The notes beneath the pieces are model-generated. The model ran no database searches. It was not told the origin of the DNA and was given only the letters and a program-made list of their open reading frames with translations. Both the position numbers and the translations under genes were made by a program. Below are positions 36,697-56,550 of a DNA stretch of 64,000 bases, in pieces (position 1 is the stretch's first letter; the number at the start of each line of letters is the position of its first letter). This stretch comes from a virus (taxonomy: Duplodnaviria; Caudoviricetes): positions 2,098 to 66,097 of the IMG/VR virus record IMGVR_UViG_3300050138_000573; one strand, given 5' to 3'.

Positions 36697-39195
36697 TCAG
36701 GGAGCGTTCCCGGGCGCGGCCGCGCCCGGCTGCGCCGTCTGGCTCAACTTCGTTGGAAACTTCGTTGAACCCCCGGCGCCGGCGTCGCCCAGTTTCGCGC
36801 CACCAGCGGGCTTCGCGTTGCCATCGGCGCCCGGTGACTCCGGCGGCGGTGAAGCGGCGGCGGTCATCAGGTCTTCCTTCACGCCAATCTCGCCCATGAT
36901 GGCCATGCGCTCTGTGGGGTTCAGCTCCCCGATCTTCGCCGTGACCGCGACCGTGGACTTCGTAGCTTCCTCCGGTGGCGGTGGCGGCGGTGCCGGCGGG
37001 ACGGGAACGATGGTCGTTTCGGCGTTCGTCTTGGGCGAAAGCGCGCGAATCTGATCCCGGTAGAATGGAGCCACGCGGGTCTGCACTTCGGGCGGAAGCA
37101 GGTAGAATTTCTCGACGATCGCGGCGGCGGCGGATGCCTGCTGCACATTCTGCTGGTTCTTGTGCGTGGTCAGGGAGATTGTGCACTTCATCTTTAGTCC
37201 GCGCACATCGTCGGGTGAAATTTTGTCGATGCCCTGGGTATCACCCTCGAGGTAGGTGAATGCTTCCTCGGGGTTGATGTTCGCCAGGGTCACATCGATT
37301 TCACGATTGAGGAGCCGCGTCATCGGGCTCTCGAGATCGGACACGATCGGCTGGAACAGTTCGTCGCCGGATTTCTGCACTTCGACGATGCCGGTCGCGA
37401 GCTTGGACGACTGCATGCCCGCGGCCTGGTCGTCGTTCGCGTTGCTCACCCCGCTCTCATTCATGAGGAGCTGAATGAAGAACTGGATCATCTTCTGGAT
37501 GTCCTCGAACTTGATGTCGTTGAGATAGACCACGGAGAGCACGTCCTCGGCCTTCATGCCGGCCTTCTTCGTGTAGCTGCCGCCCCAGTTCATCTTGAGG
37601 TTCGGGTCGCGGTCGCCTTCGAGTGTATTGGTCGGCGTCCAGAAATCGACGCGGCCACTGCGGCTCTGGCTGAAATTCCAGCGGTTCACCAGCAGGTCCA
37701 CGATCGTCTGGTAGGACTCAAAGAGTTCCATAATCCCTTGGCCGTACCACCGGCCCTGCACAGGGTTGATGCGGATGACCTCGATTGGGCGCAATCCGTC
37801 CGTCGTCACGTTGGCCACATGGTCGTAAAAGATAGGTGCGCGGCTCACGCGGTCGCAGATCAGCATGATGTTTTCCGCGATGCCGTCATTGTTCGCGTCG
37901 AACCATATATAGAACTCGGCAAACTCGGCGACCGGACCTGACGAATCGGCGTTGCTCGGGACGGGCGTGTAATTCTCGTTCGGGCGGATCGCGAGGCTCT
38001 CGGCCGCTTTCGGAGCGGAGGTGTTCGACTCGAGCTTTTTGACGAGCGCCATCATCTTTTGCGCCACGGCCTTTCGCTGGTCGGTGGTGTCATCGATCAT
38101 GCCGCGCTTCACGACGAGATCGACGAACTCGGCCACCTGCTTGTCATAGAGGTGGCAGCAGCAGTCGGCGGTCTGCACGCTCTTCGCGGTCAGCGGGCAG
38201 AGGAAGTCCTTGTAATAAATGACTTCGCTGCGTGCTCCTTCGAAGAGCACCTGGCGGCGATTGAGCGTGGAATTTTGCCAGATCGGATTATCGGGTTTCG
38301 GGGTCACGCCATCTTTCGCCAAGACCTGCGTGCCGGCGCCATCCTCGGCATCCTTCCACTGATCGTCGTCCTGAGTGATGACATCACCCTTTGCGTCGCG
38401 CACCGGCTGTCCATCCACGTCATGCAGCACCACGGCATCGGTATCAAAAATCTGATCGCGCACGACATAGCTCGTTTTGACCGCACACTCACCCAGCACC
38501 AGCGCCACGCTGATCGCTTCCTCCTTGTCGTCGCGGGAGTCGGCCTGAGCCAACTTGTAACGGCAGAAACGCTCGATTTTGTCCGCGAGTTCCTCGTCCA
38601 CCGGATCACCACTACCCGGCGTCGGGTCCACCGAAAACCACGGGTTACCACCGAAAAAGGCATTGATCGCGCGGGCGATCATCTGGCGGCAAATGCGGCG
38701 CACCACCGGGACCGCGATGTTCGACGACATGAAAATGTTGTCCAAGCCCATCGTCCACGGGCGCCACGAGACATCGTTCATGAAGGTCGCATCGAACCGC
38801 GACCGCTTGCCGAGGAAGGTGCTCGCCTGCAGGAAGCCCTGCGCGGCTGAAATCATGTTCGGCGCCGGCGCGAGGTTCGCCCACCATGTCGGCTGAAGCG
38901 TCTGGTCGCGGCCCGCCTCGTTTCCCATATCCATCAACCGCTTGAACGCGTAGTCGATCATCTTCGTCTCTTGGTCCCTCGTCAGCTTTAACTGGGTCTG
39001 GAACGGCACGAGCGGTGCATTCTGATCCACTGGGTCGCCCAACGCCTTCGTCGCCTTGTCGATGAACGGCGCATCATCCGGCGGGGGCGGCGGGGGAGGG
39101 GACGGCGGCTGGTCCGGAACCTGAGACGGGTCTTGGGCGGGGGCCCGCGGGGGCGCCACTGTCGTCTCGGGATCATCCTGGGGAACGTCTGGCAT
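36697..39195 (-). CDS. portal protein
   Basis: 832 aa; ALVLGECAVK, DFLCP..A.S...AD, GRWYG.G..E, N.SGVS...ATGI podovirus-portal-like motifs. Confidence 0.75.
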   Translation of the reverse strand: MPDVPQDDPETTVAPPRAPAQDPSQVPDQPPSPPPPPPPDDAPFIDKATKALGDPVDQNAPLVPFQTQLKLTRDQETKMIDYAFKRLMDMGNEAGRDQTLQPTWWANLAPAPNMISAAQGFLQASTFLGKRSRFDATFMNDVSWRPWTMGLDNIFMSSNIAVPVVRRICRQMIARAINAFFGGNPWFSVDPTPGSGDPVDEELADKIERFCRYKLAQADSRDDKEEAISVALVLGECAVKTSYVVRDQIFDTDAVVLHDVDGQPVRDAKGDVITQDDDQWKDAEDGAGTQVLAKDGVTPKPDNPIWQNSTLNRRQVLFEGARSEVIYYKDFLCPLTAKSVQTADCCCHLYDKQVAEFVDLVVKRGMIDDTTDQRKAVAQKMMALVKKLESNTSAPKAAESLAIRPNENYTPVPSNADSSGPVAEFAEFYIWFDANNDGIAENIMLICDRVSRAPIFYDHVANVTTDGLRPIEVIRINPVQGRWYGQGIMELFESYQTIVDLLVNRWNFSQSRSGRVDFWTPTNTLEGDRDPNLKMNWGGSYTKKAGMKAEDVLSVVYLNDIKFEDIQKMIQFFIQLLMNESGVSNANDDQAAGMQSSKLATGIVEVQKSGDELFQPIVSDLESPMTRLLNREIDVTLANINPEEAFTYLEGDTQGIDKISPDDVRGLKMKCTISLTTHKNQQNVQQASAAAAIVEKFYLLPPEVQTRVAPFYRDQIRALSPKTNAETTIVPVPPAPPPPPPEEATKSTVAVTAKIGELNPTERMAIMGEIGVKEDLMTAAASPPPESPGADGNAKPAGGAKLGDAGAGGSTKFPTKLSQTAQPGAAAPGNAP

Positions 39196-39229: not shown

Positions 39230-42200
39230 TCAATCTGTTCCGGTGCGCTGGAGTTGCGGCGGCATGCGGTGAAGGGCCTGCAGCGCCCGCTGTCCGAGTT
39301 GCATCCGACTCTGTTTGGCGCGAATGTAGGTCGCGCGTTGCTCAGGATTGAGGGTGCGAATGAACTCGGTTTCGCGGCCCTTTTGCCCGGTGAAAGGATG
39401 GCTCGCCCATTGTTTGAAATGCTTCTCGATTTGTGCAGGCGTCTTTTTCTGTAGCAGCGTCTCGAGTTCCTTCCTCATGTCGTCGGGGTTATTGCGGCGG
39501 GCCGCTGCCGTCATGTCGGTGAAATCGCCGGCGTAAAACTCGGCGGAAGGTGTGATCTTCTTCGTGCTGTTGAAGTCGCGCGCCAGTGAACTCATGCGCT
39601 GTTCGGGCGACGGCGCGGTGTCGGTCTTGAGACCCATCGATTGCATGGCCTGCTTCTGGAACTGGCCGGGAAAGTCCTCAGTGTTGCCGCCTGTCGCGAG
39701 TCCTTTTGCCGCCGCCGTAAGTGCCGAGCCGCCGATCGGCAGCGGGACGGCAGATTTCGCCACTTCTTTCGGCAGGTCCTCCGGCTTGATCTTCTGGCCC
39801 GTGCCGGTCTCTTTGAACATGGCGGTCCAAATTGGCCGGGCCGCGACCGAGACGCGTCCGCGGGCGTAATCAAGAAACGGCTGCCAGGCATTCCCGCTGC
39901 GTTCGTAACGCGTGAGCAGGAGGTGCGAGACCTCAGCCATAATGCCGAGGGGGTTGAGGAAAAAGCCCGAACTCTTTCCACCCACCTTGTCGGGGATCCA
40001 TGCCGAGAGTTTCGAACCCCACTCTTCCTCGGGGTTCTGCCAGGTGAATTTGCCGCGGGTCATCTGATTCACGATCTGGTTGGCTGCGAAAATTCCGAGC
40101 GCGCCGGTCACCATCTGCCGACCAAGGAAGCCCATCGCGAGCCGCTTACCGCGGACGGCATCAAGCGCGCTTTTGCCAATCTGGCTGACGCCTCCTACCT
40201 CTGATTTGATGAGCCCTTCATTCCAGCCGGGAGCGAGTGCAGCGAGACGCGAGATGTCTTGGGCGCTGCGGGACTTGAACCAGCCCTGCCGTCCGATGTT
40301 ACCAAACCGCGTATTGAGATCCTTGGCGACCTGCCGGGCAACCTGGTCCTGCGATAGTTCGGGGTAGGCTTTGCTCTGCCGGTTGTATTCGATTGAACCG
40401 ACTTCCTGCATCGCGCCGCGCGTGAACTTTTCGAAGATGAATTTGTTGAGCGTGCCGAGGCCGGGGACGCTCCGAATCAGTTCTTGGTGCATCGCGTCGC
40501 CCACCTGCCCGATGTTGTAGCCATTTCGAATGAGCCGGTTCGTGGTCGCCTTCTGTTCGATCAAGTGTGGCAGCGCCTTCGGATCAATCTCCCCGTTCTT
40601 CGCCATCGTGGCCAGTTCACTCGGGCTGTGGTCGAGGATGTTAAGGCCCTTCGCGTAACTCGGGATTGGGAGACGGGGATCGGTCAAGCTCGCCGCCTTC
40701 GCAATCGCCTCGTAGGTCGCGACGCGGCCCAAGTGATACGTGTCGGCCACCAGTGCGATCGACTTGCCCGCCGCATTGAGTTTGAGCGTCGTTTTGAGAA
40801 CCTGATTGTGCTGGAAAAAGCTGGGATTGGTCAGCGCCCCGATGATGCCGCGGTATTCTTTCTTCACCGCGATGGGCACCTGACCGCCGAGAAATTCGTT
40901 TTTGTAGCCCGGCGGTTCCTGATAGTAGGTGCTGCCATCCGCACGTTCAACCCGGGCCGGCTTCACGACGATGGGCTTCTTGGACGCCGGATCGATGTAG
41001 TTGTGCAGCGAGTCCTGCCACATGCGCGCGGCGACGCCGGTTTCGCCGGCGCTGATCCGGCTGCTCAGCAGCGTAAGCGCGTCGAGGGTCTTTGGGTTCG
41101 TGCCGGCTGAAATCGAATCGGCGTGCGTATCAAAGACGCGATTCTTGCGGCTGGAGGCGCCGGTCGGCGACATGCCGGCGCCGGTTTCGCCATCCAAAAC
41201 CTTCTCGAGCCAAGTGCCATCCTCGATGTCCTGCGCGTGCATGACATAGTTGTTGCGCTTGAGGGTGGGCATCCCGATGGCCTGTTCGCGTTCGGCCTGC
41301 GCGTCCGTGAGTGCTTTGTAGAGATCAGCTGCCGGCTGCATTTTGGCGTGGTTCTCTTTCGCGAAATCGATGGCCGCGATGGCGCGCGCCTTCCACTTGG
41401 GGTCGGCCTTGGTCGATGCCTCGAGCTTTGCCTTCATGGCGTCCAAGGCTTTGATGCCACCTTCGCCGGCCTCAACGTGCATGCCGATGGCATCGCCGGC
41501 GAGCGGCGGCTTCACGTCTTTGCCCAGCGCACGCTTCAGGGCGTTGTCCACGCTGGTTTCGGCTTCGCGGCCGGTCTGCTTCGCCATGTTTTCGCCGGCT
41601 TCTCTCGTATAAACCAGAGTGTCCTTGATGTCGCCCCTCTGCGACGCATCGTTCCAGGCTTTGACGATTTTCGACTTGGATGCTTCAGCTTGGGGCGACG
41701 AGATGACGGCGGCAGCTTTCTGGTCGGCTTTGGCCTTCGCGTCGTCCTGAGCGATCCGGTTGCGCTCGTTTTTTGCCTCCCGCTCAAGCTGAGCTGGAGA
41801 CCATGTGACTGATTTGTTGGATTCTTGGAGGCTCTGCAGGTGCGCCTGAACACGATCTTCGACGCTGCCAGCTTCGGCTTTCGGTGCCTCTGCGGTGCCA
41901 TGCACGCTCGCGTGCGCATCGCGGATGGCCTTCTCGAGCCGTGCTTGGTCCGCCGTGGTCGCGCCGGGATATGCAGCCTTGAGTCGCGTCACCGCCAGTT
42001 TGACCATGTGCGCGAGCTCGCGACCGGCCTTCACCCCAAGGATGGCCAAGTCGAGCGCACTGTCGTAGGCGGTAGCGAGTCCCGTGGGATCACCCAGCAC
42101 CTTGCCGCTGCCGGGTTTGTTGATCTTCGCGTTGTTGAGCGCGTCGATCAGCTTGTCTGAAAGTTTCTTCGGCTCATCGGTCACACCAAGTTGGCCGCGG

Positions 42201-45200
42201 CGCAGCTTGCCGACCGCGTTGATGATCTCAGCGGGGGTGGCATCAGCCAGCGGCTTCCCGTTGATTTCCTTCACGCCGGCGTCGGTGAGTTCCGCGGCGC
42301 GTTCGGCGCGCGACATCTGTGCCGGCGGCTTGCGCGTGTCGTCGTCCATCGATTTCCGCGGCGCCTCGGTGGTGGTCGGCTCCGGCTCGGCTTTCTTGGC
42401 GGCGGATTCGCGTGCGGCATTATTTGCCTTGTCCATCGCCGTCGGCGCGGTGCTCCGGGTTTCCTCGGGCGCGAACATTTCCGGCCCTTTATCAGCGGCA
42501 GCCTTTGGTGCTTCCGGCGCCTTTACTTCCTCGCCTGCCAAGTTGAACGGTGTCTTGTCGCCAAGCAGTTCTCCCTTCGCTGGCGCGGCGGCCTCTCCCT
42601 CGGGAGCGAAATCCGTGCTGAGTTTCCCGCCCTTGATCTTGCCCTTGTCAGGAAAGATGCGGGTGCCTGCCGGGACTGTGCGGGTGATGCCGTCCTCGAT
42701 CGTCACATTTCCGTGCTCGTCAATGTCCTTCACCGTGAACTTTTCGCCGTTCACCTCGAAGTGGTTGCCGACCGCGAGCTGGTCCACGGTCACGGGTTTG
42801 TTGTCCCGCAGCCACTCTTTCTTCTGTTCACCCGAGAAAAATGCGCGCTCGAATTTATCGAGATACTCGCCGCGCTTCTGCTGCGCGCGATCGCTCTGCA
42901 TCGCCATCCGTTCCTTCTGGCGCATGACCACGGCCTTGCGAATCTCACTGTTGAGCGATTCAACCGTGCCATCAGGGATAAGTCCTTGGGCGTGGAGGTC
43001 CTGTGCAAGCGTGTCGGGCTTCACGCCGTCCTTGCGCAGTAGCCGTGCGGCCACGCCGGGCAGGGCTTGGTCATCGTATTCACCACCAGGGTTTTTGGCA
43101 GATGCCCGGGTTTTGATGCCGCCGGCCTGCTCGACGTGGTTCAAGATGTCGAAGTTGCCGCGCGGGGTGTTGCCGATACCAATTACCTTGGCTTTTGGCT
43201 CATATTTGCCTCTATTGGCGGTGCCGGAGCCCTCCTGGCCTGCAGCCGGGACAGCCGCCGCAGCGCCTTTTGCGCTGGGTTGGGGTTCAGCCTGGTTTAC
43301 GACGGGCTGTTCCCCAGCCGAGGCTGTCGGTTGATCCTTGGTCTGGAATTCGGAGGCATCCGCAACGTGATAGCCGCCTTGAGCCATACGCACCTCGATC
43401 TTTCCATCTGGCATGATGCGCGTGACTTTTCCAATGCGCGCGCTTGGGCCATGAAGTCCGGGTACCGTGAATTTCACGGTCTGTCCAACGCCGGGTTTCG
43501 CTACTTCCGGCCGAACAGCTTCCTCACCTTTAGCTTCGGGTTGTGTTCCTGCCGCTCGAACGACGGGCTTTCCGCCCTCTCGTGGCGCGGACTCTCCTCC
43601 GGCCCCGGCGGTTGCTTTCTCGCCTGCGACAGCGCCACCGCCACGGACTGTTTCTGTGCCGTTTTCGCTCCGAACTTGTTCGCTGTTTTTTGAAACGTCG
43701 GTCCCTTGTGGAACTCGCGGATGTTCTGACTCACGATTTTGGGGCTGCTGCCCTTCAGTAGTGGCATTGGATGGTTCTCCTTTTTGGGTTTTATCTTTGG
43801 CAATGGCTGCCTTGATTTCGTCGAGAGTGTACGTGCCTTTCTCGAGGGATTCCGGCACATCGGGCAGTTCGTGACCGAGTTCTTTCAGTAACCGCAGGTT
43901 CGTCGAGCCGTAGGTCCGCACCTTGTCCGACTTGGACTCGGGTGCATTGGGACTCGACAGATCGACCTGCATCACTCGGCTATGGCCTTCCGGCACCGCC
44001 TCACGCGGATAGACGTTGTAGTGGTATGTCGTGTCCTTATCGGCTATGCCGGCCTTGATCCCGGCGAGTTTGGTGGGGCCGGCCTTCTGCGCCTCCGGTC
44101 CCGGCGCGGGTTCGGTCGGCTCATTTTTGGCGGGCGCGCCGGGCTCTTCGGGCGGCGTCCCTTTCTCTTGCGCGGCCAAATCTTCCTTCAGCTTTGCGCC
44201 GCCCTCGCCGGATTTGCGCAGCCGGTCGGCAGCGGTGAGTTCGTTTTCGATGGCTTCGCGTCGCATCGTGAGTGCGTCGTGCCGGGCCTGAGTCCTGGCC
44301 TCGGGGAGTTCCACGCCCAGCGCCTTCTGCCGGTCGGCTTCCGCCGCCGCTTCTTTGGCGGATTTCGCGGGCTGGCTGTCTTTGAGCTTTTGAATTTCCG
44401 CCGCTGCCTCGGCCTCTTGGCCGGTCTTCGTGACGTGATCCTGCCACTCGGCGTCGAGTCGCTTCAGGTCGGCGCGCAGTTCAGTCGCGCGGCGCTCAGG
44501 ATCCACCACAAGCGGATTTTTCTGATACTTCGCCTCTTTCTTCAGTTCGTCGTGCCAGGCGTCGATGTCCTTGCCGGCGCGTGTCGCCAGGATTTCGCCG
44601 CGGCTCTTCCCGGTCGAATCCTGAATCTGATCCACGAGTTTTTGCGCGGACTCCTCCTTCGCGGCGGCGCGGCGGTTAAGCTCCTCGTGCGCCTTGAAAG
44701 CCTGCGCGGATTCCTCCGCGGACTTCGCCGGCGGAGGGACATCAGCCTTCCCCTTCTCCGCATCTGGCACGAGGGTCTTGGCGGACTCGGCCGCGCTCTT
44801 CGGCGCGCCTTCACCCGTCGGCTTGAATGGCTCGGCGGCTGGCGCGGGCTCGACCGGCGCGGCGGCCGGTGGCGGAGTCTCAGACTGCGGGGCTGGCGGT
44901 TCTTCCGGCGCGTGAGCACCGCGGGGAGAGAGCGCCTGGATTGCGCCGAGTCCGGTCGCGGCACCGGCCACACCTTCCATCGCAGGGCGTCCCTCAGCGA
45001 CGTTGCTCGCTGCGGCTGACGTGCCGCCAAGGACCGCCCCCTCCGTGGCCTGCGCGACGCGGTTCGTGAGGAATTTCGTGAGCGCATTGCCCGCGATTTT
45101 ATCGACGATCAGTTTGCTCGTAGCCTTCTGCAGCGGCTTCGGAAGCAGTGCGAAAAGAGCGGCTTGGACACCGCCGGAAAGGAGCGCGCGATTCACGGCC

Positions 45201-47647
45201 ATTTTCGCCGCTTGGTCCGGCCTCATGCCCTTGGCGATGGCGTTCTGATAGATGGGTTCCATCGACTGTCCTGCCGTCTGCAGGCCGATCGTGAGCGGCG
45301 CCGCGGGCCCGCTGGCAACGAGCGGCGCGAATCCGCCGGCGCCCTTCGCCGCTTCGTTCAACGCTTGGCTGACCATCCCCTCGTCCTCGTGAGGATTTTT
45401 CGCGTAGGTCTCCTTGGCCGCGGCGTCGATGAAACTGCCCATCTGGAAAAGCGGATCCCGCTGCGTTGCCGCCATCGTGGTCCCATCCGGGCCATTGAGA
45501 TCGTTCGCCACGCGAACGGCGCCCATTGGGCTGGGGCCCGGAAGCACGCTATGCGCAAGCGCCATGCCCTTCATGACCCCGGCGCCGCCTTCGGCCGCAG
45601 CCTCGGCCAGCGACTTGCCAGCGCCCTTGATCTTGTCCCAGAACGTCGGATCGCGGGTGACATCCGTGACGCGCTGCTGCTGCTCCGGCGTGAGCCGCGC
45701 AAAACGCTGCGTGCTCAATGAGGTCAGGTAATCCTGCTCCTTCTGCAATCCGTCGCGTACCTTGCCGTCGAGTTGGGTCTTCGGGTCGTTGAGCGTCGAA
45801 TTGATGTCGTCGAGGCGATTCTTGATTTTGACGAGCGAGTTCGGCTGCACCGGACCCTGGCCGGACCCGTAGCGTTTCGCCATGTCCGACATCGAGACCT
45901 CGCCGATATTTTTCACGCCGCGGGCAGCTTGCGCGAAGGGCTCGCTGGCCAGTGTGGGATCGATCTTCCCAGCCGGTGACCCTGCGGGCGGCGTGATCGC
46001 CGCGCCCGGAACCGGCTTCGGTGCTGCGGCACCAGCAACAGGCTGCGCAGCCGGAGCTGGTGAGGTCGCACTCTGTCCGACCATCGTGAGTTTGCTTGGT
46101 GTGCCCGTGGCGGGATCTCCGCCAACACCGGCCTCCTGCGCCGGATCGTATTTCTGGGGGAGTTCCGGGCCGGATGCGAAAAGACCAGGTTGCCCTGGGA
46201 CTGGTGCACCCACGGGCAGCCGGGTGCCGGAAGTCTTCACGAGTTCGTCGTGCGAGGCACGCGGGAGTGGCGCGGGCTGGCCCGGTTGCGTTGCCGCCAT
46301 GCCGCCGTATTTCGAGATGGCATTCGCGTAGGTCTGCTTCGCCTGCTGGATGGATTGCAGGGTTGGATCCTTACTCCATTCGGTTTCCGGAACGCCTTTC
46401 GTTTTCAGGATGAGTTTGCGCTCTGATTCGGCGTCGAGATAGCCGTCGTGCCCAGCCTTTGCCTTGAAGATGGCGAGTCCGAGCGTGGCATTGCGGCGGG
46501 TCAGCTCCAATGAACCGCCCGCCTTCGTCGTCGCGTCGATGGCGTCCTTCTGTTTGGTGTAGCCATCGAGTTGCGCCTGCAGCGCGTTCATCTTGTTCGT
46601 CTCCGCGATCGCTGCGGCGGTCGGTTTAGCGCCAAAACCCATAATGCCGCCCTCCGTCGCTTTCATCGTGTTCGGATCAAGCGCCTCAATCTTGGCGTTC
46701 GTGTCGTCGATCTGTGACTGGAGAGCGCCTGATTGCTGCTTCGCCGCTTCGTGCGTCGCGATGGCGTTTCCCGCCTCATCTTCCATTGGCTTGATCGCCT
46801 CCTTCCACATTGCCGAATTCCTCTCCGCCACTGCGCGATGCGCCGTCCGCGCGATTCGCGGATCAGCGTGATTCATCAGCTTGTCCATGTCGCCGGCGGC
46901 CGTGAGGGTCCCGTCCGGCATCTTGTAATAAAGCTGGTTGTCGCTTGTGTCTGTCGGCGCAATCAGCGGCGCAGGCTTGTATTGCCGCTGGCCGTAGCGA
47001 TCGACCTTTGTGAGCGTTGGTTCGCCGGTCTGGGGATGGATGCCTTCCTCCCAGCCGGTCCCATGAAAGAGCGCGCGGCCGGTGCCGGTCTCGAGCACGG
47101 GCTGCACGTTGCCGGCGCCGTCGCGATAGAACTGCTGGCCGCTCGCGCGCATCTGCGCCTCGGTCTTCGCGTTATTCGTCCGCTGCGTGTAAAGATTCTG
47201 CGACTGGGCCTCGCCGGCCTGCCGGTCAGCGGCGATCTCCGCATCCCGGTATTGCTTGGGCGTGATGACCGGGCCGTTTGGTGAGACCGGCTGGGAGTTC
47301 GAATAGGCGTCCTTCCAGGCTGAGGTCGCCGTGTTCAGCAGGGCCGCGCGCGCCGCGGCGTGCCGCTCAGTTGCATCTGCGGCCAGCGGCTCGGCCGGCA
47401 TTCCGGGTTCGGGCGGTTGGATTTCCGGCGGCGGTGTGTCGCTCGGCTCTGGCACTTGAGCCGGGGGCGCGTCTGAACCGCGTGGCACCTGATTCCCACG
47501 ACGGCTGAAACCGAGTGCGCGCCCGTGATTGATGACCGGGGGCGGCGGTGGCGGGCCGGCCGGATTGATGACCGGCGTACCCTCGGGCACCGGCGCCGTT
47601 GCTACGTTGCCTTGCTCCTGATCCGTCTGGTCAATGTCGTCGGCCAT
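39230..47647 (-). CDS. giant (2805 aa) internal virion/DNA-ejection-type protein
   Basis: single long ORF between TerL and portal; A/P/G/E-rich, helical C-terminus. Confidence 0.8.
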   Translation of the reverse strand: MADDIDQTDQEQGNVATAPVPEGTPVINPAGPPPPPPVINHGRALGFSRRGNQVPRGSDAPPAQVPEPSDTPPPEIQPPEPGMPAEPLAADATERHAAARAALLNTATSAWKDAYSNSQPVSPNGPVITPKQYRDAEIAADRQAGEAQSQNLYTQRTNNAKTEAQMRASGQQFYRDGAGNVQPVLETGTGRALFHGTGWEEGIHPQTGEPTLTKVDRYGQRQYKPAPLIAPTDTSDNQLYYKMPDGTLTAAGDMDKLMNHADPRIARTAHRAVAERNSAMWKEAIKPMEDEAGNAIATHEAAKQQSGALQSQIDDTNAKIEALDPNTMKATEGGIMGFGAKPTAAAIAETNKMNALQAQLDGYTKQKDAIDATTKAGGSLELTRRNATLGLAIFKAKAGHDGYLDAESERKLILKTKGVPETEWSKDPTLQSIQQAKQTYANAISKYGGMAATQPGQPAPLPRASHDELVKTSGTRLPVGAPVPGQPGLFASGPELPQKYDPAQEAGVGGDPATGTPSKLTMVGQSATSPAPAAQPVAGAAAPKPVPGAAITPPAGSPAGKIDPTLASEPFAQAARGVKNIGEVSMSDMAKRYGSGQGPVQPNSLVKIKNRLDDINSTLNDPKTQLDGKVRDGLQKEQDYLTSLSTQRFARLTPEQQQRVTDVTRDPTFWDKIKGAGKSLAEAAAEGGAGVMKGMALAHSVLPGPSPMGAVRVANDLNGPDGTTMAATQRDPLFQMGSFIDAAAKETYAKNPHEDEGMVSQALNEAAKGAGGFAPLVASGPAAPLTIGLQTAGQSMEPIYQNAIAKGMRPDQAAKMAVNRALLSGGVQAALFALLPKPLQKATSKLIVDKIAGNALTKFLTNRVAQATEGAVLGGTSAAASNVAEGRPAMEGVAGAATGLGAIQALSPRGAHAPEEPPAPQSETPPPAAAPVEPAPAAEPFKPTGEGAPKSAAESAKTLVPDAEKGKADVPPPAKSAEESAQAFKAHEELNRRAAAKEESAQKLVDQIQDSTGKSRGEILATRAGKDIDAWHDELKKEAKYQKNPLVVDPERRATELRADLKRLDAEWQDHVTKTGQEAEAAAEIQKLKDSQPAKSAKEAAAEADRQKALGVELPEARTQARHDALTMRREAIENELTAADRLRKSGEGGAKLKEDLAAQEKGTPPEEPGAPAKNEPTEPAPGPEAQKAGPTKLAGIKAGIADKDTTYHYNVYPREAVPEGHSRVMQVDLSSPNAPESKSDKVRTYGSTNLRLLKELGHELPDVPESLEKGTYTLDEIKAAIAKDKTQKGEPSNATTEGQQPQNRESEHPRVPQGTDVSKNSEQVRSENGTETVRGGGAVAGEKATAGAGGESAPREGGKPVVRAAGTQPEAKGEEAVRPEVAKPGVGQTVKFTVPGLHGPSARIGKVTRIMPDGKIEVRMAQGGYHVADASEFQTKDQPTASAGEQPVVNQAEPQPSAKGAAAAVPAAGQEGSGTANRGKYEPKAKVIGIGNTPRGNFDILNHVEQAGGIKTRASAKNPGGEYDDQALPGVAARLLRKDGVKPDTLAQDLHAQGLIPDGTVESLNSEIRKAVVMRQKERMAMQSDRAQQKRGEYLDKFERAFFSGEQKKEWLRDNKPVTVDQLAVGNHFEVNGEKFTVKDIDEHGNVTIEDGITRTVPAGTRIFPDKGKIKGGKLSTDFAPEGEAAAPAKGELLGDKTPFNLAGEEVKAPEAPKAAADKGPEMFAPEETRSTAPTAMDKANNAARESAAKKAEPEPTTTEAPRKSMDDDTRKPPAQMSRAERAAELTDAGVKEINGKPLADATPAEIINAVGKLRRGQLGVTDEPKKLSDKLIDALNNAKINKPGSGKVLGDPTGLATAYDSALDLAILGVKAGRELAHMVKLAVTRLKAAYPGATTADQARLEKAIRDAHASVHGTAEAPKAEAGSVEDRVQAHLQSLQESNKSVTWSPAQLEREAKNERNRIAQDDAKAKADQKAAAVISSPQAEASKSKIVKAWNDASQRGDIKDTLVYTREAGENMAKQTGREAETSVDNALKRALGKDVKPPLAGDAIGMHVEAGEGGIKALDAMKAKLEASTKADPKWKARAIAAIDFAKENHAKMQPAADLYKALTDAQAEREQAIGMPTLKRNNYVMHAQDIEDGTWLEKVLDGETGAGMSPTGASSRKNRVFDTHADSISAGTNPKTLDALTLLSSRISAGETGVAARMWQDSLHNYIDPASKKPIVVKPARVERADGSTYYQEPPGYKNEFLGGQVPIAVKKEYRGIIGALTNPSFFQHNQVLKTTLKLNAAGKSIALVADTYHLGRVATYEAIAKAASLTDPRLPIPSYAKGLNILDHSPSELATMAKNGEIDPKALPHLIEQKATTNRLIRNGYNIGQVGDAMHQELIRSVPGLGTLNKFIFEKFTRGAMQEVGSIEYNRQSKAYPELSQDQVARQVAKDLNTRFGNIGRQGWFKSRSAQDISRLAALAPGWNEGLIKSEVGGVSQIGKSALDAVRGKRLAMGFLGRQMVTGALGIFAANQIVNQMTRGKFTWQNPEEEWGSKLSAWIPDKVGGKSSGFFLNPLGIMAEVSHLLLTRYERSGNAWQPFLDYARGRVSVAARPIWTAMFKETGTGQKIKPEDLPKEVAKSAVPLPIGGSALTAAAKGLATGGNTEDFPGQFQKQAMQSMGLKTDTAPSPEQRMSSLARDFNSTKKITPSAEFYAGDFTDMTAAARRNNPDDMRKELETLLQKKTPAQIEKHFKQWASHPFTGQKGRETEFIRTLNPEQRATYIRAKQSRMQLGQRALQALHRMPPQLQRTGTD
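43501..43767 (-). CDS. overprinted small basic protein nested in the giant gene (alternate frame)
   Basis: AAAGGAGAACCATCCA-ATG RBS; MPLLKGSSPKIVSQNIREF...KQSVAVALSQAR matches a common small phage protein pattern. Confidence 0.7.
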   Translation of the reverse strand: MPLLKGSSPKIVSQNIREFHKGPTFQKTANKFGAKTAQKQSVAVALSQARKQPPGPEESPRHERAESPSFERQEHNPKLKVRKLFGRK

Positions 47648-47656
47648 GGCGGGGGG

Positions 47657-48448
47657 TCAATCCCCCGCATAGCTCATTGGCGCAGGGGCGCGAGTCAGGG
47701 GGGTGCGTTGCGGCGACGGCTTGGATCCGAAAAGACCTTTCACGTAAGAATCATACATCCCGGCCGAGTGCGGGTTGGTGAAGCTGCGCATGTAGCTGCC
47801 TTCGCCGCCAACGTGAGTAGCCGGATTTGGCTGCGCGCCGCCGTAGGATGCCGATGGCGATGGTTGCCACGGCTGCATCGGTTGATTCGTGATCGGCGGA
47901 ATCCGCGCAATCGGGCTCATGTTGGCGAATCCCGGAGCAGGCGGTGGCGTGAACGGGGCGCTCTGGCCGGGCATGACGGAACTGACATCGCCGCCCAAGG
48001 GATTCGCGCGCTCGGTCTGCGGCGGTGGCGGCGGCTGCGCGGCGACCTGCGGCGCCATCGCGGGAGTCATACCGCTGACGGCGCCGGGTCGGGGCATGCC
48101 GTTGTCAGGACCCCAGGCGAGCATGTTCACGCCGCCGGGGTGGTTTGCAGTCTGGTCGAAATTTGCGCCGGGTGCGGCAATTCCGTTCGCGCGGCCGTAA
48201 GCCAGAAGATCGGTACTACCGTCCGGGCCCGGCTGACCCGGCGCGGGCGGCGCAGCGGGAGCGGCGGTGGGAGCCGGCGGCTGCATGCCTGGAATCGGCG
48301 CAAACCCACGCTGCGGCATTCCTTGATTCATTACCGGGCTCGCGGCACCGGGGGGCGGTTGAAAAACCCCCGCACGTCCCGCGACTGGAGCGCCAACCGG
48401 GAGGCGCGCACCTGTTCTCGTAAGACCACGTGGTTTCGGCATGTTCAT
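47657..48448 (-). CDS. Pro/Gly/Met-rich low-complexity protein
   Basis: ORF fills the gap between TerL and the giant gene. Confidence 0.65.
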   Translation of the reverse strand: MNMPKPRGLTRTGARLPVGAPVAGRAGVFQPPPGAASPVMNQGMPQRGFAPIPGMQPPAPTAAPAAPPAPGQPGPDGSTDLLAYGRANGIAAPGANFDQTANHPGGVNMLAWGPDNGMPRPGAVSGMTPAMAPQVAAQPPPPPQTERANPLGGDVSSVMPGQSAPFTPPPAPGFANMSPIARIPPITNQPMQPWQPSPSASYGGAQPNPATHVGGEGSYMRSFTNPHSAGMYDSYVKGLFGSKPSPQRTPLTRAPAPMSYAGD

Positions 48449-48493: not shown

Positions 48494-50329
48494 TTATGAG
48501 AACGCTGATCCTAATCCTGCCGGCTTAGTTTCGAGGTTTTGCAGGTCTGGGGGCAGACCGAATCCGCCGCGGTTGGGCATGTAGGTCATCGCCTGGTCGA
48601 TGAGCAGCAGACCAAGCGCGATCGCAATCACATCGTCGTCCTTGCTGCCCTCGCCGGCCTCTGATCGGCCGTTCATCTTCACGATGAAATTCTCGCATTC
48701 CTCGATTGCGTCGGGATCAAAGATGTCGATGCCGTCGCCCGGCGTATCGAACTCGCGGATGGCTTGCGCAAGACATTCGACCAGGGTTTCGCGCGTCTTT
48801 TCGTTCGTGATGTAGCCAAGCGCCTTCGTCTTCTTAAACTCAAGCTGGTTGAAAATCTCACGCATGTAGAGATTCGCGCCGCGCTGTTTCAGGAGTTCGG
48901 TCAGGCCGCGGTCCATGTTCATCTCGATCGCGATCATGCACCCCATGTGGCCGCCGTAGAAGCGCGCCAGTTTCCACGCGACATCCTCAAGCACGTCGAT
49001 GTCGAAACGGCATTTGATGATGCGAGCGACGGCCGCCGTGCGGTTCCACTTGCCGCTGCCATCCCAGTACCCCTGGCGCAGAATGTGCGCGCCATGGTAG
49101 TCGGGATCCACGCTGCCGGTCTGCGTCGCGCCGGTCATCGGGTCGATCGCGAGGATGTATTTTCGCCCGGGCTGCGGCCTCTCGTAGATGATGATGTTTG
49201 ATTCGCCGCGCTCAGTGGGGCGAAAGGCGATCGTCCTCGACTTCGTTTCCTCGAGCACTCCGGGCATCGCCACGCGCAGCCCCATCCTTTTCCGCAATAC
49301 GGAAAGCCCGGCAGCGTTGAAACGCCGATTGCCGGATTTCATGAAGGCGTCCTGCCAAGAATGGGGATAATCCCGGTCAAAAATCTGCTTGTCGCCTTTG
49401 CACTCTTCCTTGATTGCCCACCGGCGCCAGGCCAGTTGCTCCCACATATCGTAGTCTTGGACGCTCTTCCCGAGGTGCGGGGTGCCAGCATCGTCGTCGT
49501 GCCGGTAGCGTTCGATCAGCATGCGTTCGCCCGAATACCATTCCTCGTCGTCGATCGTTTTTTCGAGCTGGAATTTCTCGGCAGGAGTCAGCCGCATCGC
49601 GGAATCTTGAAACTCGAACCACGGAGCAAACACGCGCACCACGTCGCCCGGCTTCAGGTCGATCTTGCCGCTCAGATAATCCTCGGCATCGACTGCGGGC
49701 AACCACCGTTCAAAAAATGGCCCGGAGGCACCTTCAGCTGTGGACTCAAGAATGACGATTGTATCGGGGAGCAGCGGCACGCACTTCAGGATGTTCGCGA
49801 GCACATCGCCGGCGTTGGCGATGCCGTAGCGGGCCCAGCGCGCGACCTCCGTGGCGTGAAGAATTTGATTCGTCCCGGCGATGCCGGCCTGGGCGTCACC
49901 AGCGGTTTCCTGTTTCAGCCGGCTGCCGTTTGACCAGTTGCCAGTCTTCGAATCGATCTTGCCGGTGTTCCCCCAATCGAAAACGTCATTGTTCTGGTAG
50001 GTTTGGAGCATGCTCCAGATTTCCGAGGTCTGGCTGTATTGCCCTCCGATGACAACCGCTGAAGCCGACATCTTGCGCATGTAGTGGTAGTCGAGCGCGC
50101 TAAAGAAAGTTGTGCTGCCTTTTTGCCGCGGCTTCAGCCCGATGATGCGAATCGGCAGTTTATCCGCCTCCATTTTTGCCACGACTTTCTGCACAAGGCG
50201 CTGGAGATAGTTCATCTGCGGCCGCATGAGTCCCTTGCTTCTGTCCTTCGGCCAAATCCTGCCCATCGTCTCGAACCACACGCCGGCGTTGGAACGGATG
50301 GCTTCCTTGAGTATGGCTTGTTCGCTCAT
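48494..50329 (-). CDS. terL: terminase large subunit
   Basis: LKPRQKGST Walker A region, LHATEVARW, ILESTAEG, YILAIDP, AIEMN, DDDVIA.AL nuclease motif. Confidence 0.93.
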   Translation of the reverse strand: MSEQAILKEAIRSNAGVWFETMGRIWPKDRSKGLMRPQMNYLQRLVQKVVAKMEADKLPIRIIGLKPRQKGSTTFFSALDYHYMRKMSASAVVIGGQYSQTSEIWSMLQTYQNNDVFDWGNTGKIDSKTGNWSNGSRLKQETAGDAQAGIAGTNQILHATEVARWARYGIANAGDVLANILKCVPLLPDTIVILESTAEGASGPFFERWLPAVDAEDYLSGKIDLKPGDVVRVFAPWFEFQDSAMRLTPAEKFQLEKTIDDEEWYSGERMLIERYRHDDDAGTPHLGKSVQDYDMWEQLAWRRWAIKEECKGDKQIFDRDYPHSWQDAFMKSGNRRFNAAGLSVLRKRMGLRVAMPGVLEETKSRTIAFRPTERGESNIIIYERPQPGRKYILAIDPMTGATQTGSVDPDYHGAHILRQGYWDGSGKWNRTAAVARIIKCRFDIDVLEDVAWKLARFYGGHMGCMIAIEMNMDRGLTELLKQRGANLYMREIFNQLEFKKTKALGYITNEKTRETLVECLAQAIREFDTPGDGIDIFDPDAIEECENFIVKMNGRSEAGEGSKDDDVIAIALGLLLIDQAMTYMPNRGGFGLPPDLQNLETKPAGLGSAFS

Positions 50330-50733
50330 GCGGGGTTCCTCTTGAGGACGGGATCGACTGCCGGTTCAAACTCAAAGCGCGAGTAGAAGCCGGCGGCGTC
50401 TCGGGTTGCGAGCACGCAGACCGTGTTTTTCACGTCCGGGTGCGTCACGATTGCCTGCATCAGCTTCGTGCCCACGCCGCGGCGCTGCCAGTCCTCGATC
50501 ACAAAAAAGTCCACGATGCTCGAAAACATCGTCTTGTCTGTGACGACCCGCGCGAAGGCGATCGGCTGAATCAATTCCATCTCTTCGACCCAGAAGCAGA
50601 GCGAGTTCTCCACGCCTTTGCGAATGCGTTCCTCAGTCAACCACCAACCCCAGTACGTTGTCCGCAGCTTCTCGATGAGCCACGGGAAGTCGTCCGGGTT
50701 TGTCTGCGTGCTAATGCGAAGATTGAGTTTCAT
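50326..50733 (-). CDS. GNAT acetyltransferase
   Basis: FARVVTD, WQRRGVGTKLM, AAGFYSRF. Confidence 0.9.
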   Translation of the reverse strand: MKLNLRISTQTNPDDFPWLIEKLRTTYWGWWLTEERIRKGVENSLCFWVEEMELIQPIAFARVVTDKTMFSSIVDFFVIEDWQRRGVGTKLMQAIVTHPDVKNTVCVLATRDAAGFYSRFEFEPAVDPVLKRNPA

Positions 50734-53509: not shown

Positions 53510-55786
53510 TTATTTCACGTGAAACGCCGGCGCCTTCCCCTGCATGATCGCCTCCGCTATTTTCTCGTAGCGCTTTATTCCTGAATGGGTCCAGAATTCG
53601 CAAAGGAAATCCCGATCATAGCGGTAGATTGCTTGCCACGACGTATTGGGATCAATGCCACACATGCGCCCATCTTCTTCTCGGTCGTAATCAACAAAGT
53701 GATATTTGTCTGGAAAATCTCTGATCGCGATCGCCGCAAGCGCGGGAAATTCTGCAAAATGTTGCGGAAAGGCATTCTGTCCCGACAGCACATAGTCGTC
53801 GAAGCTCTGGCCGGTGTGCGTTTCAACCATCTCGCGCAGTCGTCGGTAGGTCTCACGCCGATGTGCGTTCGGATGTTTGGTCATGCCCTCCCACTCAGGC
53901 GTGAAGCCTAACGCGCGCTCAACCGCTCCCTGCCAAAACAAGCGATTTTCATTTCTCTTCCCACAGTCAGCGTATCGTTCACGAACCAATATCGGCTTCC
54001 CATTCTGCATGAAATCCGCCGGCGTGCATTGCCGCCAGAACATGCAGTCCGCATCGAGGTGCAGGATGTAATCAGCCTCCGGGCAGATTTCGTCCGCCCG
54101 GCATTTCTGAATCAAATGTCCGAGATGCCCCTTGTCGGGGATCTCATCGAAGAAGTGAAACTTCACTCCTTTTTTTGCCCAATCAAAGAGGTGTTTTTCT
54201 GAGTTTGGTACAACGAGCGTGACGCCGTGAAAGCCGGCGGTGAACATCGAGATCGACCGCAGGCAGTAGCGCAGAAACTCCGTGTCGCGCTGGTGGGTCA
54301 CGATCAGGATTTCCATCCGGTCGCCAGGCGCGTGTTCGATGCGCAGGCTGGGCCTTACTTCGTTGCGTTGCGCAAGCACTCTTTTCTGGGCCTCGTAGGT
54401 CGAGGCGCACAAAGCCGGCGCGAGCGGGATCAGTGGTTGGTTGGCCCGCAGACAGAGGACATCAATCAAACTTCCGTCCTTGCACTGATGGAACAGTGCG
54501 GTCTCCGGCTTGATGTTCTTCTGAGCCCACGCCTCTGTAATCGGCAGCGGCGGGCGCCAGATTTGCTGAATGGTCTTCGCGTAGTGCGCCCGCGGCAGGA
54601 TGTCGTGAGCGCAGAGGGAATCGAAACCACATTCTTCCTGGCCCATCGCTGCCAGCGACGGCGCCAACTTACGCCAGTTTGGGTGATAGACTGCGTTGCC
54701 TGTGAGGTGCGGGATGTCGCCTGCGCGCTGCACGTCGCCCATGAAGGGCCGACCGCAGGCGCGGTACTCGGCGAGGATCTGTCCATACCACCCTTGTCTC
54801 ATTGGGACGGTATCGGCCTCGGCCCACAACATCGCGCGCCCGGGAAATTCTTTCTCACAATACTCTAGCGCTCCCTTGAACATCTGATTCGGAGATCCGA
54901 AGTAACCGATTTCTTCCAAACCACTGCATATCTCCGGCACAATCTGGAGTGGTTCGGCTGCATCACCTAATTGCTCGAACTGTTCACTCGTCAGCGCGGG
55001 TGTTGACCAGACTACCAGTGGGAATTTCTCTCTACCGTCCATGCCAGATGTCTCAGGGATGGCCAGTGAAGCCACCCACTTCAGCCACTTCATCGCTAGG
55101 TTCCAGTCAAAACGGGCGACCGGCAGCACCACCACAAGATCGAGCGCAGTGTTGTCCGTGTAAACCGGCCGCGTCAGTTTGCCGGCTTGACTGGCGGCGC
55201 GAAATTTCTGGTCGGCTTCTTCCGTCTTGATGAACCACCAGGACGTGCACCACGTCACGTGTGGGCGAACGCCGATGATCTCGACCAGATCCATCACGGC
55301 GGTCAGCGCATCGCTATTCGTGTCCTTGTCGTAGCGCGTGAAGAAATCATGACCGGAGAAGATACCGCCGATCTTCACCTTTGGCCACCAGGCCGCGATG
55401 TCCGCCTGTATGAACGGAAGCGCGTGATTGCCGTCGAGGTAAACCCAAACAAGTTCGCCGTCCTCAAATTTGGGGACGGCGTTGAGGCTCATCATCCGCA
55501 GCAGGTGGCAGCGTGGGTGGCGCCCGATGTTGCTTTTCACCTGCTCGAAAACGCTGTTCATGTCGTGCTTGTTCGCGCCGTCAAAATACACGTCCTCCGG
55601 CTGGTTGACCCACGGATCGATGCAGTAGAGTTCACCCTTCCACGTTTTCAGAATGTCGGTCGCATAGGCGCCAAAGAGCGTGCCAACCTCCACGCCCTTC
55701 CCGGTCAAACCCCGGGCATTGAGGAAGTCGCCGATCTGGTCGCGCATCGAGAGCGTGCGCAGGGCTGGCTGGGGGATGAGTGTCAC
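53510..55786 (-). CDS. three-domain SAM methyltransferase + two glycosyltransferase-like domains
   Basis: GVEVGT..G, IDPW, VYLDGNH, WWPKVK.GG..SGHD; WAEAD.VP; HLDADC. Confidence 0.8.
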   Translation of the reverse strand: MTLIPQPALRTLSMRDQIGDFLNARGLTGKGVEVGTLFGAYATDILKTWKGELYCIDPWVNQPEDVYFDGANKHDMNSVFEQVKSNIGRHPRCHLLRMMSLNAVPKFEDGELVWVYLDGNHALPFIQADIAAWWPKVKIGGIFSGHDFFTRYDKDTNSDALTAVMDLVEIIGVRPHVTWCTSWWFIKTEEADQKFRAASQAGKLTRPVYTDNTALDLVVVLPVARFDWNLAMKWLKWVASLAIPETSGMDGREKFPLVVWSTPALTSEQFEQLGDAAEPLQIVPEICSGLEEIGYFGSPNQMFKGALEYCEKEFPGRAMLWAEADTVPMRQGWYGQILAEYRACGRPFMGDVQRAGDIPHLTGNAVYHPNWRKLAPSLAAMGQEECGFDSLCAHDILPRAHYAKTIQQIWRPPLPITEAWAQKNIKPETALFHQCKDGSLIDVLCLRANQPLIPLAPALCASTYEAQKRVLAQRNEVRPSLRIEHAPGDRMEILIVTHQRDTEFLRYCLRSISMFTAGFHGVTLVVPNSEKHLFDWAKKGVKFHFFDEIPDKGHLGHLIQKCRADEICPEADYILHLDADCMFWRQCTPADFMQNGKPILVRERYADCGKRNENRLFWQGAVERALGFTPEWEGMTKHPNAHRRETYRRLREMVETHTGQSFDDYVLSGQNAFPQHFAEFPALAAIAIRDFPDKYHFVDYDREEDGRMCGIDPNTSWQAIYRYDRDFLCEFWTHSGIKRYEKIAEAIMQGKAPAFHVK

Positions 55787-56550
55787 AATGGTCGGCAGAG
55801 CCAGTCCCACCGCGGCGGTTCGCCCCACATCGTCAGTTCATATCCGCGGTCGCGGATGACTTTCTCCAAATCCGCGGGCGTGAAGCCGCGCTTGGCGAGC
55901 GCCTCGGCATACATCTCGACAAAAAGCCACGGCCGGCACCGCGCGATGGTCTCGCTCGCGCCGATGATCGTCGGGATTTCCGCGCCCTCCACATCGATCT
56001 TCATCAGTTTGCACGCGGGCAGCTTGAGTTCGTCAATTCGCGCCGTGGCAAACGATGTCGGCCCATCGTCCGGGGTGACGCTGCGCATCCCGAAGTTCGG
56101 GCCCGGGCAATCGTAAACCAACTTCACCCGCTCGCCGTTGCCGGTTGGCCGATTGTAAATCGTGACGCCCGGATTATTCCGGTTGTTGAAGACCGCGCAG
56201 ACGTAGGCATCAAAGAAGGGTTCGAACGCATGTACCTCGCCGGCGCCGGCCTTGAACAAAGCCTCGGCCGTGTCGCCGATGAACGCTCCGGCGTCCACGC
56301 ACACATCGCCCATCTGCAGGCCGATCGCCTTGGCGAGTTTCGGCATGTCGCCATCGATGTCGAGGGTCTTCATGGCCTCAGACCGCGGCGGTTGGTTGCA
56401 GTCGCCCTCGATGCACAGGGCGCCAAAGCTCAGCCGGCGGAGATGGATGACGTTGGGGTTGCTCACAGGGGTTGGGGTGTCGTTGGTTGCGCGCAGCCGT
56501 TCATCCTCCTGCTTGTCCTCGAGCCAGCGCGCCTTTTGCTCATCGTTCAC
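55783..56550 (-). CDS. FkbM-family methyltransferase
   Basis: VDAGAFIG, AFEP, LMKIDVEGAE..I.GA..TI...RP..FVE. Confidence 0.88.
   Translation of the reverse strand: MNDEQKARWLEDKQEDERLRATNDTPTPVSNPNVIHLRRLSFGALCIEGDCNQPPRSEAMKTLDIDGDMPKLAKAIGLQMGDVCVDAGAFIGDTAEALFKAGAGEVHAFEPFFDAYVCAVFNNRNNPGVTIYNRPTGNGERVKLVYDCPGPNFGMRSVTPDDGPTSFATARIDELKLPACKLMKIDVEGAEIPTIIGASETIARCRPWLFVEMYAEALAKRGFTPADLEKVIRDRGYELTMWGEPPRWDWLCRPL

Follow-up and report, generated by a model that had tools for sequence, protein, structure and literature searches.

A 64,000-nucleotide stretch of a Caudoviricetes genome (positions 2,098 to 66,097 of IMG/VR record IMGVR_UViG_3300050138_000573; hereafter the window) contains a giant open reading frame (ORF) of 2805 codons, and within the middle of this ORF, on the same strand and in the +1 frame, lies an 88-codon ORF. 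The nested ORF is very probably a functional, separately initiated gene for a small basic protein, housed in a giant virion-associated gene of the polyvalent type in the terminase-portal region. By the sequence evidence set out below, the nested gene is real and conserved, and it is probably translated. The features of the overlap are as follows.

39230-47647, minus strand: host gene, giant ORF of 2805 amino acids, with no Pfam or PHROG match of its own
43501-43767, minus strand: nested ORF (protein P0001) of 88 amino acids plus stop codon, read in frame +1 relative to the giant gene
43777-43782, minus strand: Shine-Dalgarno-like AAGGAG, 9 nucleotides before the nested ATG
43615-43767, minus strand: conserved N-terminal domain (residues 1-51), with the motifs MPLxKG, NIxEFHxGxT and KQxVAVAL
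43504-43614, minus strand: basic tail (residues 52-88), predicted to be disordered, ending KVRKLFGRK

The nested start codon (ATG, 43767-43765) lies 3880 nucleotides (3 x 1293 + 1) from the ATG of the giant ORF at 47647 and is hence in the +1 frame; the stop codon occupies 43503-43501, and the overlap covers residues ~1294-1382 of the giant protein. These coordinates confirm the original prediction, made by a model from the letters of the sequence, that an 88-residue ORF with a strong Shine-Dalgarno (SD) motif is hidden at this position, and the first 50 residues are identical to the peptide quoted there. The small frame is also open further upstream, to an ATG at 43860 (a 119-residue reading), and the family alignment begins at the M-P-L of 43767 rather than at this upstream ATG. 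The peptide occurs once in the 66,097-bp virus record (100% complete according to CheckV), of which the window is nearly all. As the original prediction also held, SD motifs are scarce in the window: when cores were sought at −18 to −4, a 4-base core was found at just 6 of 32 long-ORF starts and a 5-base core at 4 of 32. AAGGAG occurs 33 times in the window, counting both strands, and the SD motif alone is therefore weak evidence.

The nested protein and its family

The original prediction had described the peptide as a small protein that is usually encoded by a stand-alone gene in phage morphogenesis regions. In profile searches, the 88-residue peptide matches the phage family phrog_2423 (E = 2.7e-8, 34.7 bits), the best stretch comprising profile positions 1-18 of 52 in a collection, PHROGs, that has no curated cut-off. 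The giant gene contains nine other same-strand, alternative-frame ORFs of at least 60 residues, and none of them hits a PHROG at E ≤ 0.01. Relatives fetched with the peptide or its alignment come from 5 viral loci, 60 metagenome loci and 16 loci in contigs of metagenome-assembled genomes (MAGs); the MAG labels of these 16 span many phyla, and no host assignment is drawn from them. A profile built from 50 relatives extends to 1596 representative clusters at E ≤ 1e-3, and 18 of the 50 aligned relatives match Pfam DUF6496 (PF20106) at E ≤ 1e-3, with a best value of 2.2e-8.

The family alignment (A3; 50 rows, with the window protein as reference row) is defined by the motif MPLxKG...NIxEFHxGxT...KQAVAVAL, and M1, N15, I16, E18, F19, T28, G33, A37, Q40, A43 and A45 are invariant over all rows. 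The window protein has each of these residues and carries the domain from residue 1; its identity is 47-65% for 48 of the other 49 rows and 38% for the remaining one. The end of its tail also recurs, as KVRNLFGRP in the L001 homologue and in similar form in L015, in the stand-alone copies L002-L004 and in the unrelated nested protein of L086 that is described below. AlphaFold2, supplied with the 50-sequence alignment, predicts helices at residues 9-21, 23-32 and 34-51 with a predicted local distance difference test score of ~95, and the N-terminal domain is confidently modelled as a three-helix bundle over residues 9-51, with a low-confidence tail. Family proteins are short and basic (median 62 residues, median net charge +11, median pI 10.6). 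A fold search with the small-protein model found no match in the PDB at E ≤ 0.001 and only uncharacterised family members in BFVD (E ≥ 0.1); the Atlas search gave viral hypothetical or DUF6496 clusters alone, with a score of 0.84 that serves as a lead only.

Most copies of the gene stand alone. Among the 66 loci classified (those of the viral and metagenome scans plus L008), 45 carry a complete stand-alone copy, 8 a nested copy, 1 an in-frame fusion (L009, 1246 residues) and 9 an incomplete copy; 3 were set aside as partial or doubtful. A portal-type gene lies downstream of the stand-alone copy at all three loci tested (L043, L030 and L035), and TerL lies upstream at two of them (L030 and L035), the upstream gene of L043 having no match. 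The terminase-portal position is thus common to these stand-alone copies and the window, and the description as a mostly stand-alone morphogenesis-region gene is borne out. An SD core precedes 37/45 stand-alone and 5/9 nested copies, against a background of 14.5%. In three MAG contigs (L078:5071-5262, L079:5540-5725 and L083:68-286), the open frame of the downstream gene (509-703 residues) reaches back across the whole small gene, with the same relative offset as in the nested copies.

The position of the domain within its proteins is also uniform where it was checked. The top 150 representatives include 109 of at most 120 residues and 26 of at least 200, and 119 start with MP; in this set the domain is at residue 1 in all seven representatives of at least 500 residues. 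In-frame N-terminal fusions of the small domain, in proteins of 500-1253 residues, are found at L009:2701-6441 (plus strand) and in P0065, P0083 and P0109. When ten long representatives were scanned, polyvalent domains were found behind the small domain in two: P0065 carries LPD23, and P0083 carries ART-PolyVal below threshold, at 29.6 bits against a cut-off of 31.2 bits. At L068:1070-1273, only the second half of the domain matches (TKAKFGKKKADKQAVAVALSQAR) and the frame is open for 356 codons upstream; this may be a C-terminal or rearranged occurrence.

Frame-specific selection in the overlap

Comparison of the two frames, a check that the original prediction had proposed, indicates that substitutions follow the small frame. 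Between the window and L001, the 53 nucleotide differences in codons 1-52 are distributed 17/9/27 over the small-frame codon positions, and 35/52 residues are identical in the small frame as against 19/51 in the host frame. Over the last ten codons, the corresponding values are 7/10 and 2/9. Between L001 and L008, amino-acid changes number 8 in the small frame as against 21 in the host frame. Across seven nested representatives, nucleotide diversity by small-frame position is 0.33/0.27/0.50 (0.31/0.26/0.60 in stand-alone copies), and mean identity is 0.64 in the small frame and 0.37 in the host frame, with the small frame higher in 15/15 pairs. These identities agree with the earlier description of the host frame over the ORF as a linker, since it behaves like a by-product.

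Codon usage follows the same division. The GC content at third codon positions (GC3) of the giant frame is 0.74 gene-wide and 0.44 in the overlap, where that of the small frame is 0.79. The host-type frame is open across 9/9 nested copies, the window's included, as against 5/45 stand-alone copies, where it reaches only 71-134 residues; the host frame is thus kept open but appears otherwise unconstrained. In an all-against-all scan of alternative-frame segments from 22 related giant genes, the alternative frame is better conserved than the host frame by at least 15 points in 29 of 222 pairs. Strong matches in these 29 pairs concern the nested ORF only (E = 2e-23 and 3e-25), and the remaining pairs are Arg/Pro/Ser-rich low-complexity segments at non-homologous positions (E = 1e-3 to 6e-6). 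Judged by these substitution patterns, purifying selection acts on the small frame, and the host frame bears no amino-acid constraint beyond staying open.

Nested copies in other giant genes

A survey of other giant genes, likewise suggested in the original prediction, found the same nested combination of ribosome-binding site and ORF again. In 8 of the 66 loci, the copy lies wholly within a same-strand ORF that is 1383 to 2213 residues long or is cut by a contig end, and the frame offset is identical in all. L001 and L008 each encode a 64-residue homologue at the same +1 offset; the L001 host is a 2208-residue ORF and the closely related L008 host is cut by a contig end, and both share the N- and C-terminal domains of the window host at 30-41% identity. 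In L015, L041, L048, L049, L051 and L065, the small gene is nested in ORFs of 1383-1907 residues or in ORFs cut by contig ends. The hosts of the nested copies form at least four groups without detectable mutual homology outside the overlap (blastp and shallow hhalign), hhalign probabilities between groups A to D being below 1% with profiles of just 1-2 sequences. For the L015 host, there is a match to a family of virion structural proteins. Translated in the host frame, 9/9 nested copies give a similar peptide, ...NAT...PEHxGIPQGxN...EVR...GGGGGA, which is simply the conserved small gene read in the shifted frame.

Two further observations concern relatives of the window host. L103:9573-9710 and L104:9573-9710 (plus strand) carry a 45-residue short variant (MPLIKKQSKQAHSQNV...KQAVAIAYS...) in the +1 frame of a 1587-residue host homologue, and this variant has no Pfam match. 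When L001:5001-5195 is compared with L008:749-943, all 31 differences fall inside the 195-nucleotide ORF; five 195-nucleotide blocks sampled 195-2195 nucleotides downstream show 0 differences, and upstream blocks differ at 35-104 of 195 nucleotides. A recombination breakpoint thus appears to lie inside the nested ORF of this pair.

The giant host gene and its surroundings

The giant gene is flanked by packaging genes and has two conserved regions, with the nested ORF between them.

45563-47377, minus strand: N-terminal region (residues ~91-695 of the giant protein), conserved at 30-36% identity in the L001 host
39272-42169, minus strand: C-terminal domain (residues 1827-2792 of the giant protein), conserved at 41% identity in L001 and at up to 58% in other relatives
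36697-39195, minus strand: portal gene, directly downstream (PF23899 SU10_portal, E = 2.1e-19)
48494-50329, minus strand: weak terminase-like gene, upstream (phrog_24361, E = 4.3e-4)

A 277-residue ORF separates the terminase-like gene from the giant gene. The 22 nucleotides before the giant-gene ATG (47648-47669, minus strand) contain the inverted repeat GCGGGGG ATTGA CCCCCGC and no SD motif. Upstream of the packaging genes are a GNAT acetyltransferase gene (50326-50733, minus strand) and a 772-residue gene (53510-55828, minus strand) with matches to a methyltransferase and DUF6492 and a weak match to Stealth_CR2.

The C-terminal domain is found in 47 other proteins (48 in all), each of them a single protein of 1546-4174 residues. 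INPHARED contains no relatives by tblastn with the peptide or by megablast of the giant gene; the giant protein likewise retrieved none from viral contigs in a single-sequence scan, nor any sequence relative from the PDB. Three of the C-terminal-domain relatives were scanned (P0009, P0014 and P0048), and their middle parts are occupied by Kinase-PolyVal, ART-PolyVal, or helicase plus methylase domains; because of these domains, the host family fits the polyvalent proteins. According to Iyer et al. (2017; PMC5512222), polyvalent proteins, found in phages and conjugative elements, are encoded with portal and terminase genes and are probably packaged. The window gene resembles them in its very large product, in its place beside portal and terminase genes and in the effector modules that its relatives carry in the variable middle. 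It differs in that the 2805-residue protein, with 0 Pfam and 0 PHROG matches, has no recognised effector domain, let alone several. The word "overlapping" is absent from the main text of that paper, and nested out-of-frame genes fall outside the architecture described there.

Sporadic distribution and origin

The nested gene is distributed sporadically within this host family. The by-product signature is present in 7/48 host-family proteins with a hidden Markov model (2/48 with a regular expression alone), as read from the protein sequences only, P0009, P0010, P0012, P0023 and P0028 being among the proteins with such a site, and a small-family match is found at 4/26 related viral loci: L088 (on the same contig as L001), L008, L103 and L104. 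On the small-protein tree (52 columns), five changes of nested state are needed, three of them forced by well-supported branches; in the approximately unbiased test, however, a single nested clade is not rejected (p-AU 0.24), and the origins may be one or several.

The original prediction had supposed that the giant ORF read through and engulfed a formerly separate small gene. This course of events is not favoured: the hosts are single giant proteins in 48/48 relatives, the window and L001 hosts each hold the two conserved domains in one ORF, the signature is present in just 7 of these 48, and five related records lack the gene altogether. It is more likely that the small gene was taken up into the variable middle of a gene that was giant beforehand, or that it was lost from there more than once.

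Probable translation of the nested gene and alternative explanations

In the proposed mechanism, ribosomes would start internally at the SD motif and ATG, producing the 88-residue protein beside the 2805-residue one; we infer translation from the purifying selection and the start signals. Independent initiation is the simplest reading of the conserved ATG and M-P-L and of the SD core in 5/9 nested copies. At L015, L041 and L065, the small frame has stops 1-5 codons before the ATG. The small domain may need a free N-terminus and would for that reason be carried as a nested gene and not as an in-frame internal module, a proposal that derives from its location at residue 1 wherever checked. Most speculatively, given the charge of the family proteins, their synteny and their links to polyvalent proteins, the product could act late in association with the virion or with DNA, as a partner of polyvalent cargo proteins.

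Several observations weigh against the interpretation of the nested ORF as a functional, translated family member. The match of the window peptide to DUF6496 (19.9 bits, E = 9.5e-4, residues 7-52) falls short of the gathering threshold of 24 bits, and the window protein is here treated as a branch apparently related to DUF6496 rather than a certified member. A clear SD core is missing from four of the nine nested copies (L001, L008, L041 and L065). Since 26/32 long-ORF starts of the phage lack a 4-base core, initiation in the host may not usually be led by SD motifs. No copy occurs anywhere in five related phage records (four of which are at least 90% complete), in a search that recovered 5/5 known carriers as a positive control, and the gene is accordingly dispensable in this phage group. 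L048 and L051 differ at 9 nucleotides in the overlap, with 6 amino-acid changes in the small frame and 4 in the host frame; the overlap of this pair is, however, better conserved than its flanks (8 differences in 200 nucleotides versus 20-34 in 180-200). The host-frame tail peptide (GGESAPREGGKPVVRAAG...EEAVRPEVA; 43504-43614, minus strand) resembles host-frame stretches of P0005, P0007 and P0020; either the nested tail may be under dual constraint or these three may carry a nested ORF with a similar tail. The GC3 signal in the tail is confounded by the Gly/Ala/Glu-rich host peptide.

It is improbable that the nested ORF is a relic, a small gene trapped in the giant ORF whose translation has been lost and whose frame remains intact owing to recent capture or to host-frame constraint. 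An accessory gene that is missing from five related records, with no clear SD core in 4/9 nested copies, would accord with such a fate. Yet the frame and the invariant residues are intact in 9/9 nested copies even though hosts have diverged to 41% identity, and the C-terminal tail motif is retained. Substitutions concentrate at third positions of the small frame and are fewest at third positions of the host frame, a pattern opposite to what host-frame constraint would produce.

A similarly small probability attaches to recoding, in which the small frame would be expressed as a frameshift fusion, either by a +1 shift joining the N-terminal half of the giant protein to the domain or by a −1 shift joining the domain to the C-terminal half, and not as a separate gene only. 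In its favour, the host frame lies at −1 with respect to the small one, the small frame of the window stays open over the 31 codons that precede the ATG, and some large proteins carry the domain fused in frame (L009, P0065, P0083 and others). However, a screen restricted to canonical −1 heptamers found no X_XXY_YYZ in 7/9 nested ORFs, that of the window included. The stops shortly upstream of the ATG in L015, L041 and L065, the conserved ATG and M-P-L start, the location of the domain at residue 1 wherever checked and the nested ORF's own C-terminal motif, conserved right up to the stop codon, likewise argue for a separate gene.

Less probable still is an annotation artefact, by which the 2805-residue ORF would comprise two genes flanking the small one and the intervening host frame would be open by accident. 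Long open frames often arise by accident in DNA of 60% GC, and the host frame shows no amino-acid constraint over the overlap; a start signal for a separate C-terminal gene was not searched for. The giant ORF nevertheless runs for 8.4 kb without a stop, the window and L001 hosts each unite both conserved domains in one ORF, 48/48 relatives are single proteins, and the contrast between 9/9 nested and 5/45 stand-alone copies suggests that openness is maintained. Fortuitous occurrence of an ORF and an SD-like hexamer in a GC-rich gene, for which one might cite the 33 occurrences of AAGGAG, the SD-plus-ATG pairs at several non-gene sites and the frequency of alternative-frame ORFs of similar length, is refuted by homology, with significant family matches, 65 related loci and 0/9 control ORFs matching.

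A second nested family

A homologue of the window host, the giant ORF L086:9812-17047, contains an unrelated 60-residue nested ORF (L086:13071-13253, plus strand; starting MPYKSLAQAAYFN) at the same +1 offset, with GGAGG 8 nucleotides before its start. GC3 over this ORF is 0.84 in the small frame and 0.62 in the host frame. Its product (the MPYKS family) has 295 small homologues of 33-105 residues at E ≤ 1e-3, up to ~90% identical, and ends KKIRRLFSKK, resembling the KVRKLFGRK of the window protein. The shifted by-product of this ORF resembles stretches of P0017, P0027, P0049, P0024, P0008 and P0005. In addition, L105 (host residue ~369) and L108 (~615) contain +1-frame, MP-initiated ORFs of 46 and 51 residues that are alike by eye, sharing ...C.H.PE...G.CPPKKV..EF... 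and both ending PKYH; these may constitute a third nested family.

At least two unrelated small families, the DUF6496-like one and MPYKS (in L086), are nested in relatives of this host, both in the +1 frame, and some nested proteins of both share a C-terminal ...R-x-L-F-G/S-R/K tail. Tentatively, the variable middle of giant virion genes of the polyvalent type could be a dedicated out-of-frame slot for exchangeable small genes whose products require free N-termini, and the giant gene a two-layer cargo locus of in-frame effector modules and nested small proteins. If true, the nested proteins would be co-expressed with the giant protein and perhaps packaged with it or escort it.

Comparison with known overlapping genes

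In the spanin genes Rz and Rz1, both expressed late, Rz1 is overprinted and its product is the obligate partner of Rz. The phage lambda pair and its equivalents (compare PMC6139136) offer a likeness: a small gene lies wholly within a larger same-strand gene and is read in the +1 frame from a start of its own. The nested ORF of the window, preceded by its own ribosome-binding site, has this arrangement. It differs in that its family is mostly stand-alone, and the host frame rather than the nested frame looks like the by-product. Its host is a 2805-residue virion-type protein, and the likeness concerns the arrangement of the genes.

In phiX174, gene B is overprinted in A and gene E in D. Other cases of overprinting are found among the single-gene lysis genes of RNA phages, in the examples treated in PMC8227390 and PMC7693330. 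What the window shares with these small phages is a single piece of DNA whose frames encode two different proteins. In the small phages, it is the embedded frame that is evolutionarily new, which is usually explained by the need for a compact genome, whereas in the window the embedded frame belongs to the older, widespread family and the 66-kb genome has no evident need for compression.

Among proteins of phrog_2423/DUF6496, B5BTY3 of Ralstonia phage RSB1 and BcepNY3 gp01 share the predicted fold, motifs, small size and basic charge of the window protein. These proteins are annotated as stand-alone, whereas the window copy is nested, continues into a tail of 37 residues and does not reach the gathering threshold of DUF6496. 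Full-text literature searches (without supplements) found DUF6496 mentioned in no paper and nothing relevant that joins a polyvalent protein with an overlapping gene, and the titles and abstracts found by broader searches on overlapping genes describe no such arrangement. Embedded phage genes are known already; what stands out here is their recurrence in giant genes of the polyvalent type and the reversed polarity.

Implications

As the original prediction anticipated, standard annotation misses the nested gene. Nine nested proteins (the 88- and 119-residue readings of the window and the nested ORFs of L001, L015, L041, L065, L051, L049 and L086) were looked up by exact sequence in a collection of 15 billion proteins, and 0/9 are present, whereas the stand-alone control, L005, is present on 18 contigs. 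The window thus provides a well-supported, conserved gene within a gene of a kind that gene callers overlook systematically and, because they do so, giant phage ORFs should be screened in all frames. The usual polarity of overprinting is reversed, in that the embedded frame is old and widespread and the host frame is an apparently unconstrained by-product. This arrangement bears on how giant polyvalent genes take up foreign sequence and remain unbroken. For an uncharacterised family of 1596 representative clusters, the terminase-portal synteny, the N-terminal position of the domain and the association with polyvalent proteins, whether nested or in frame, are the first contextual leads.

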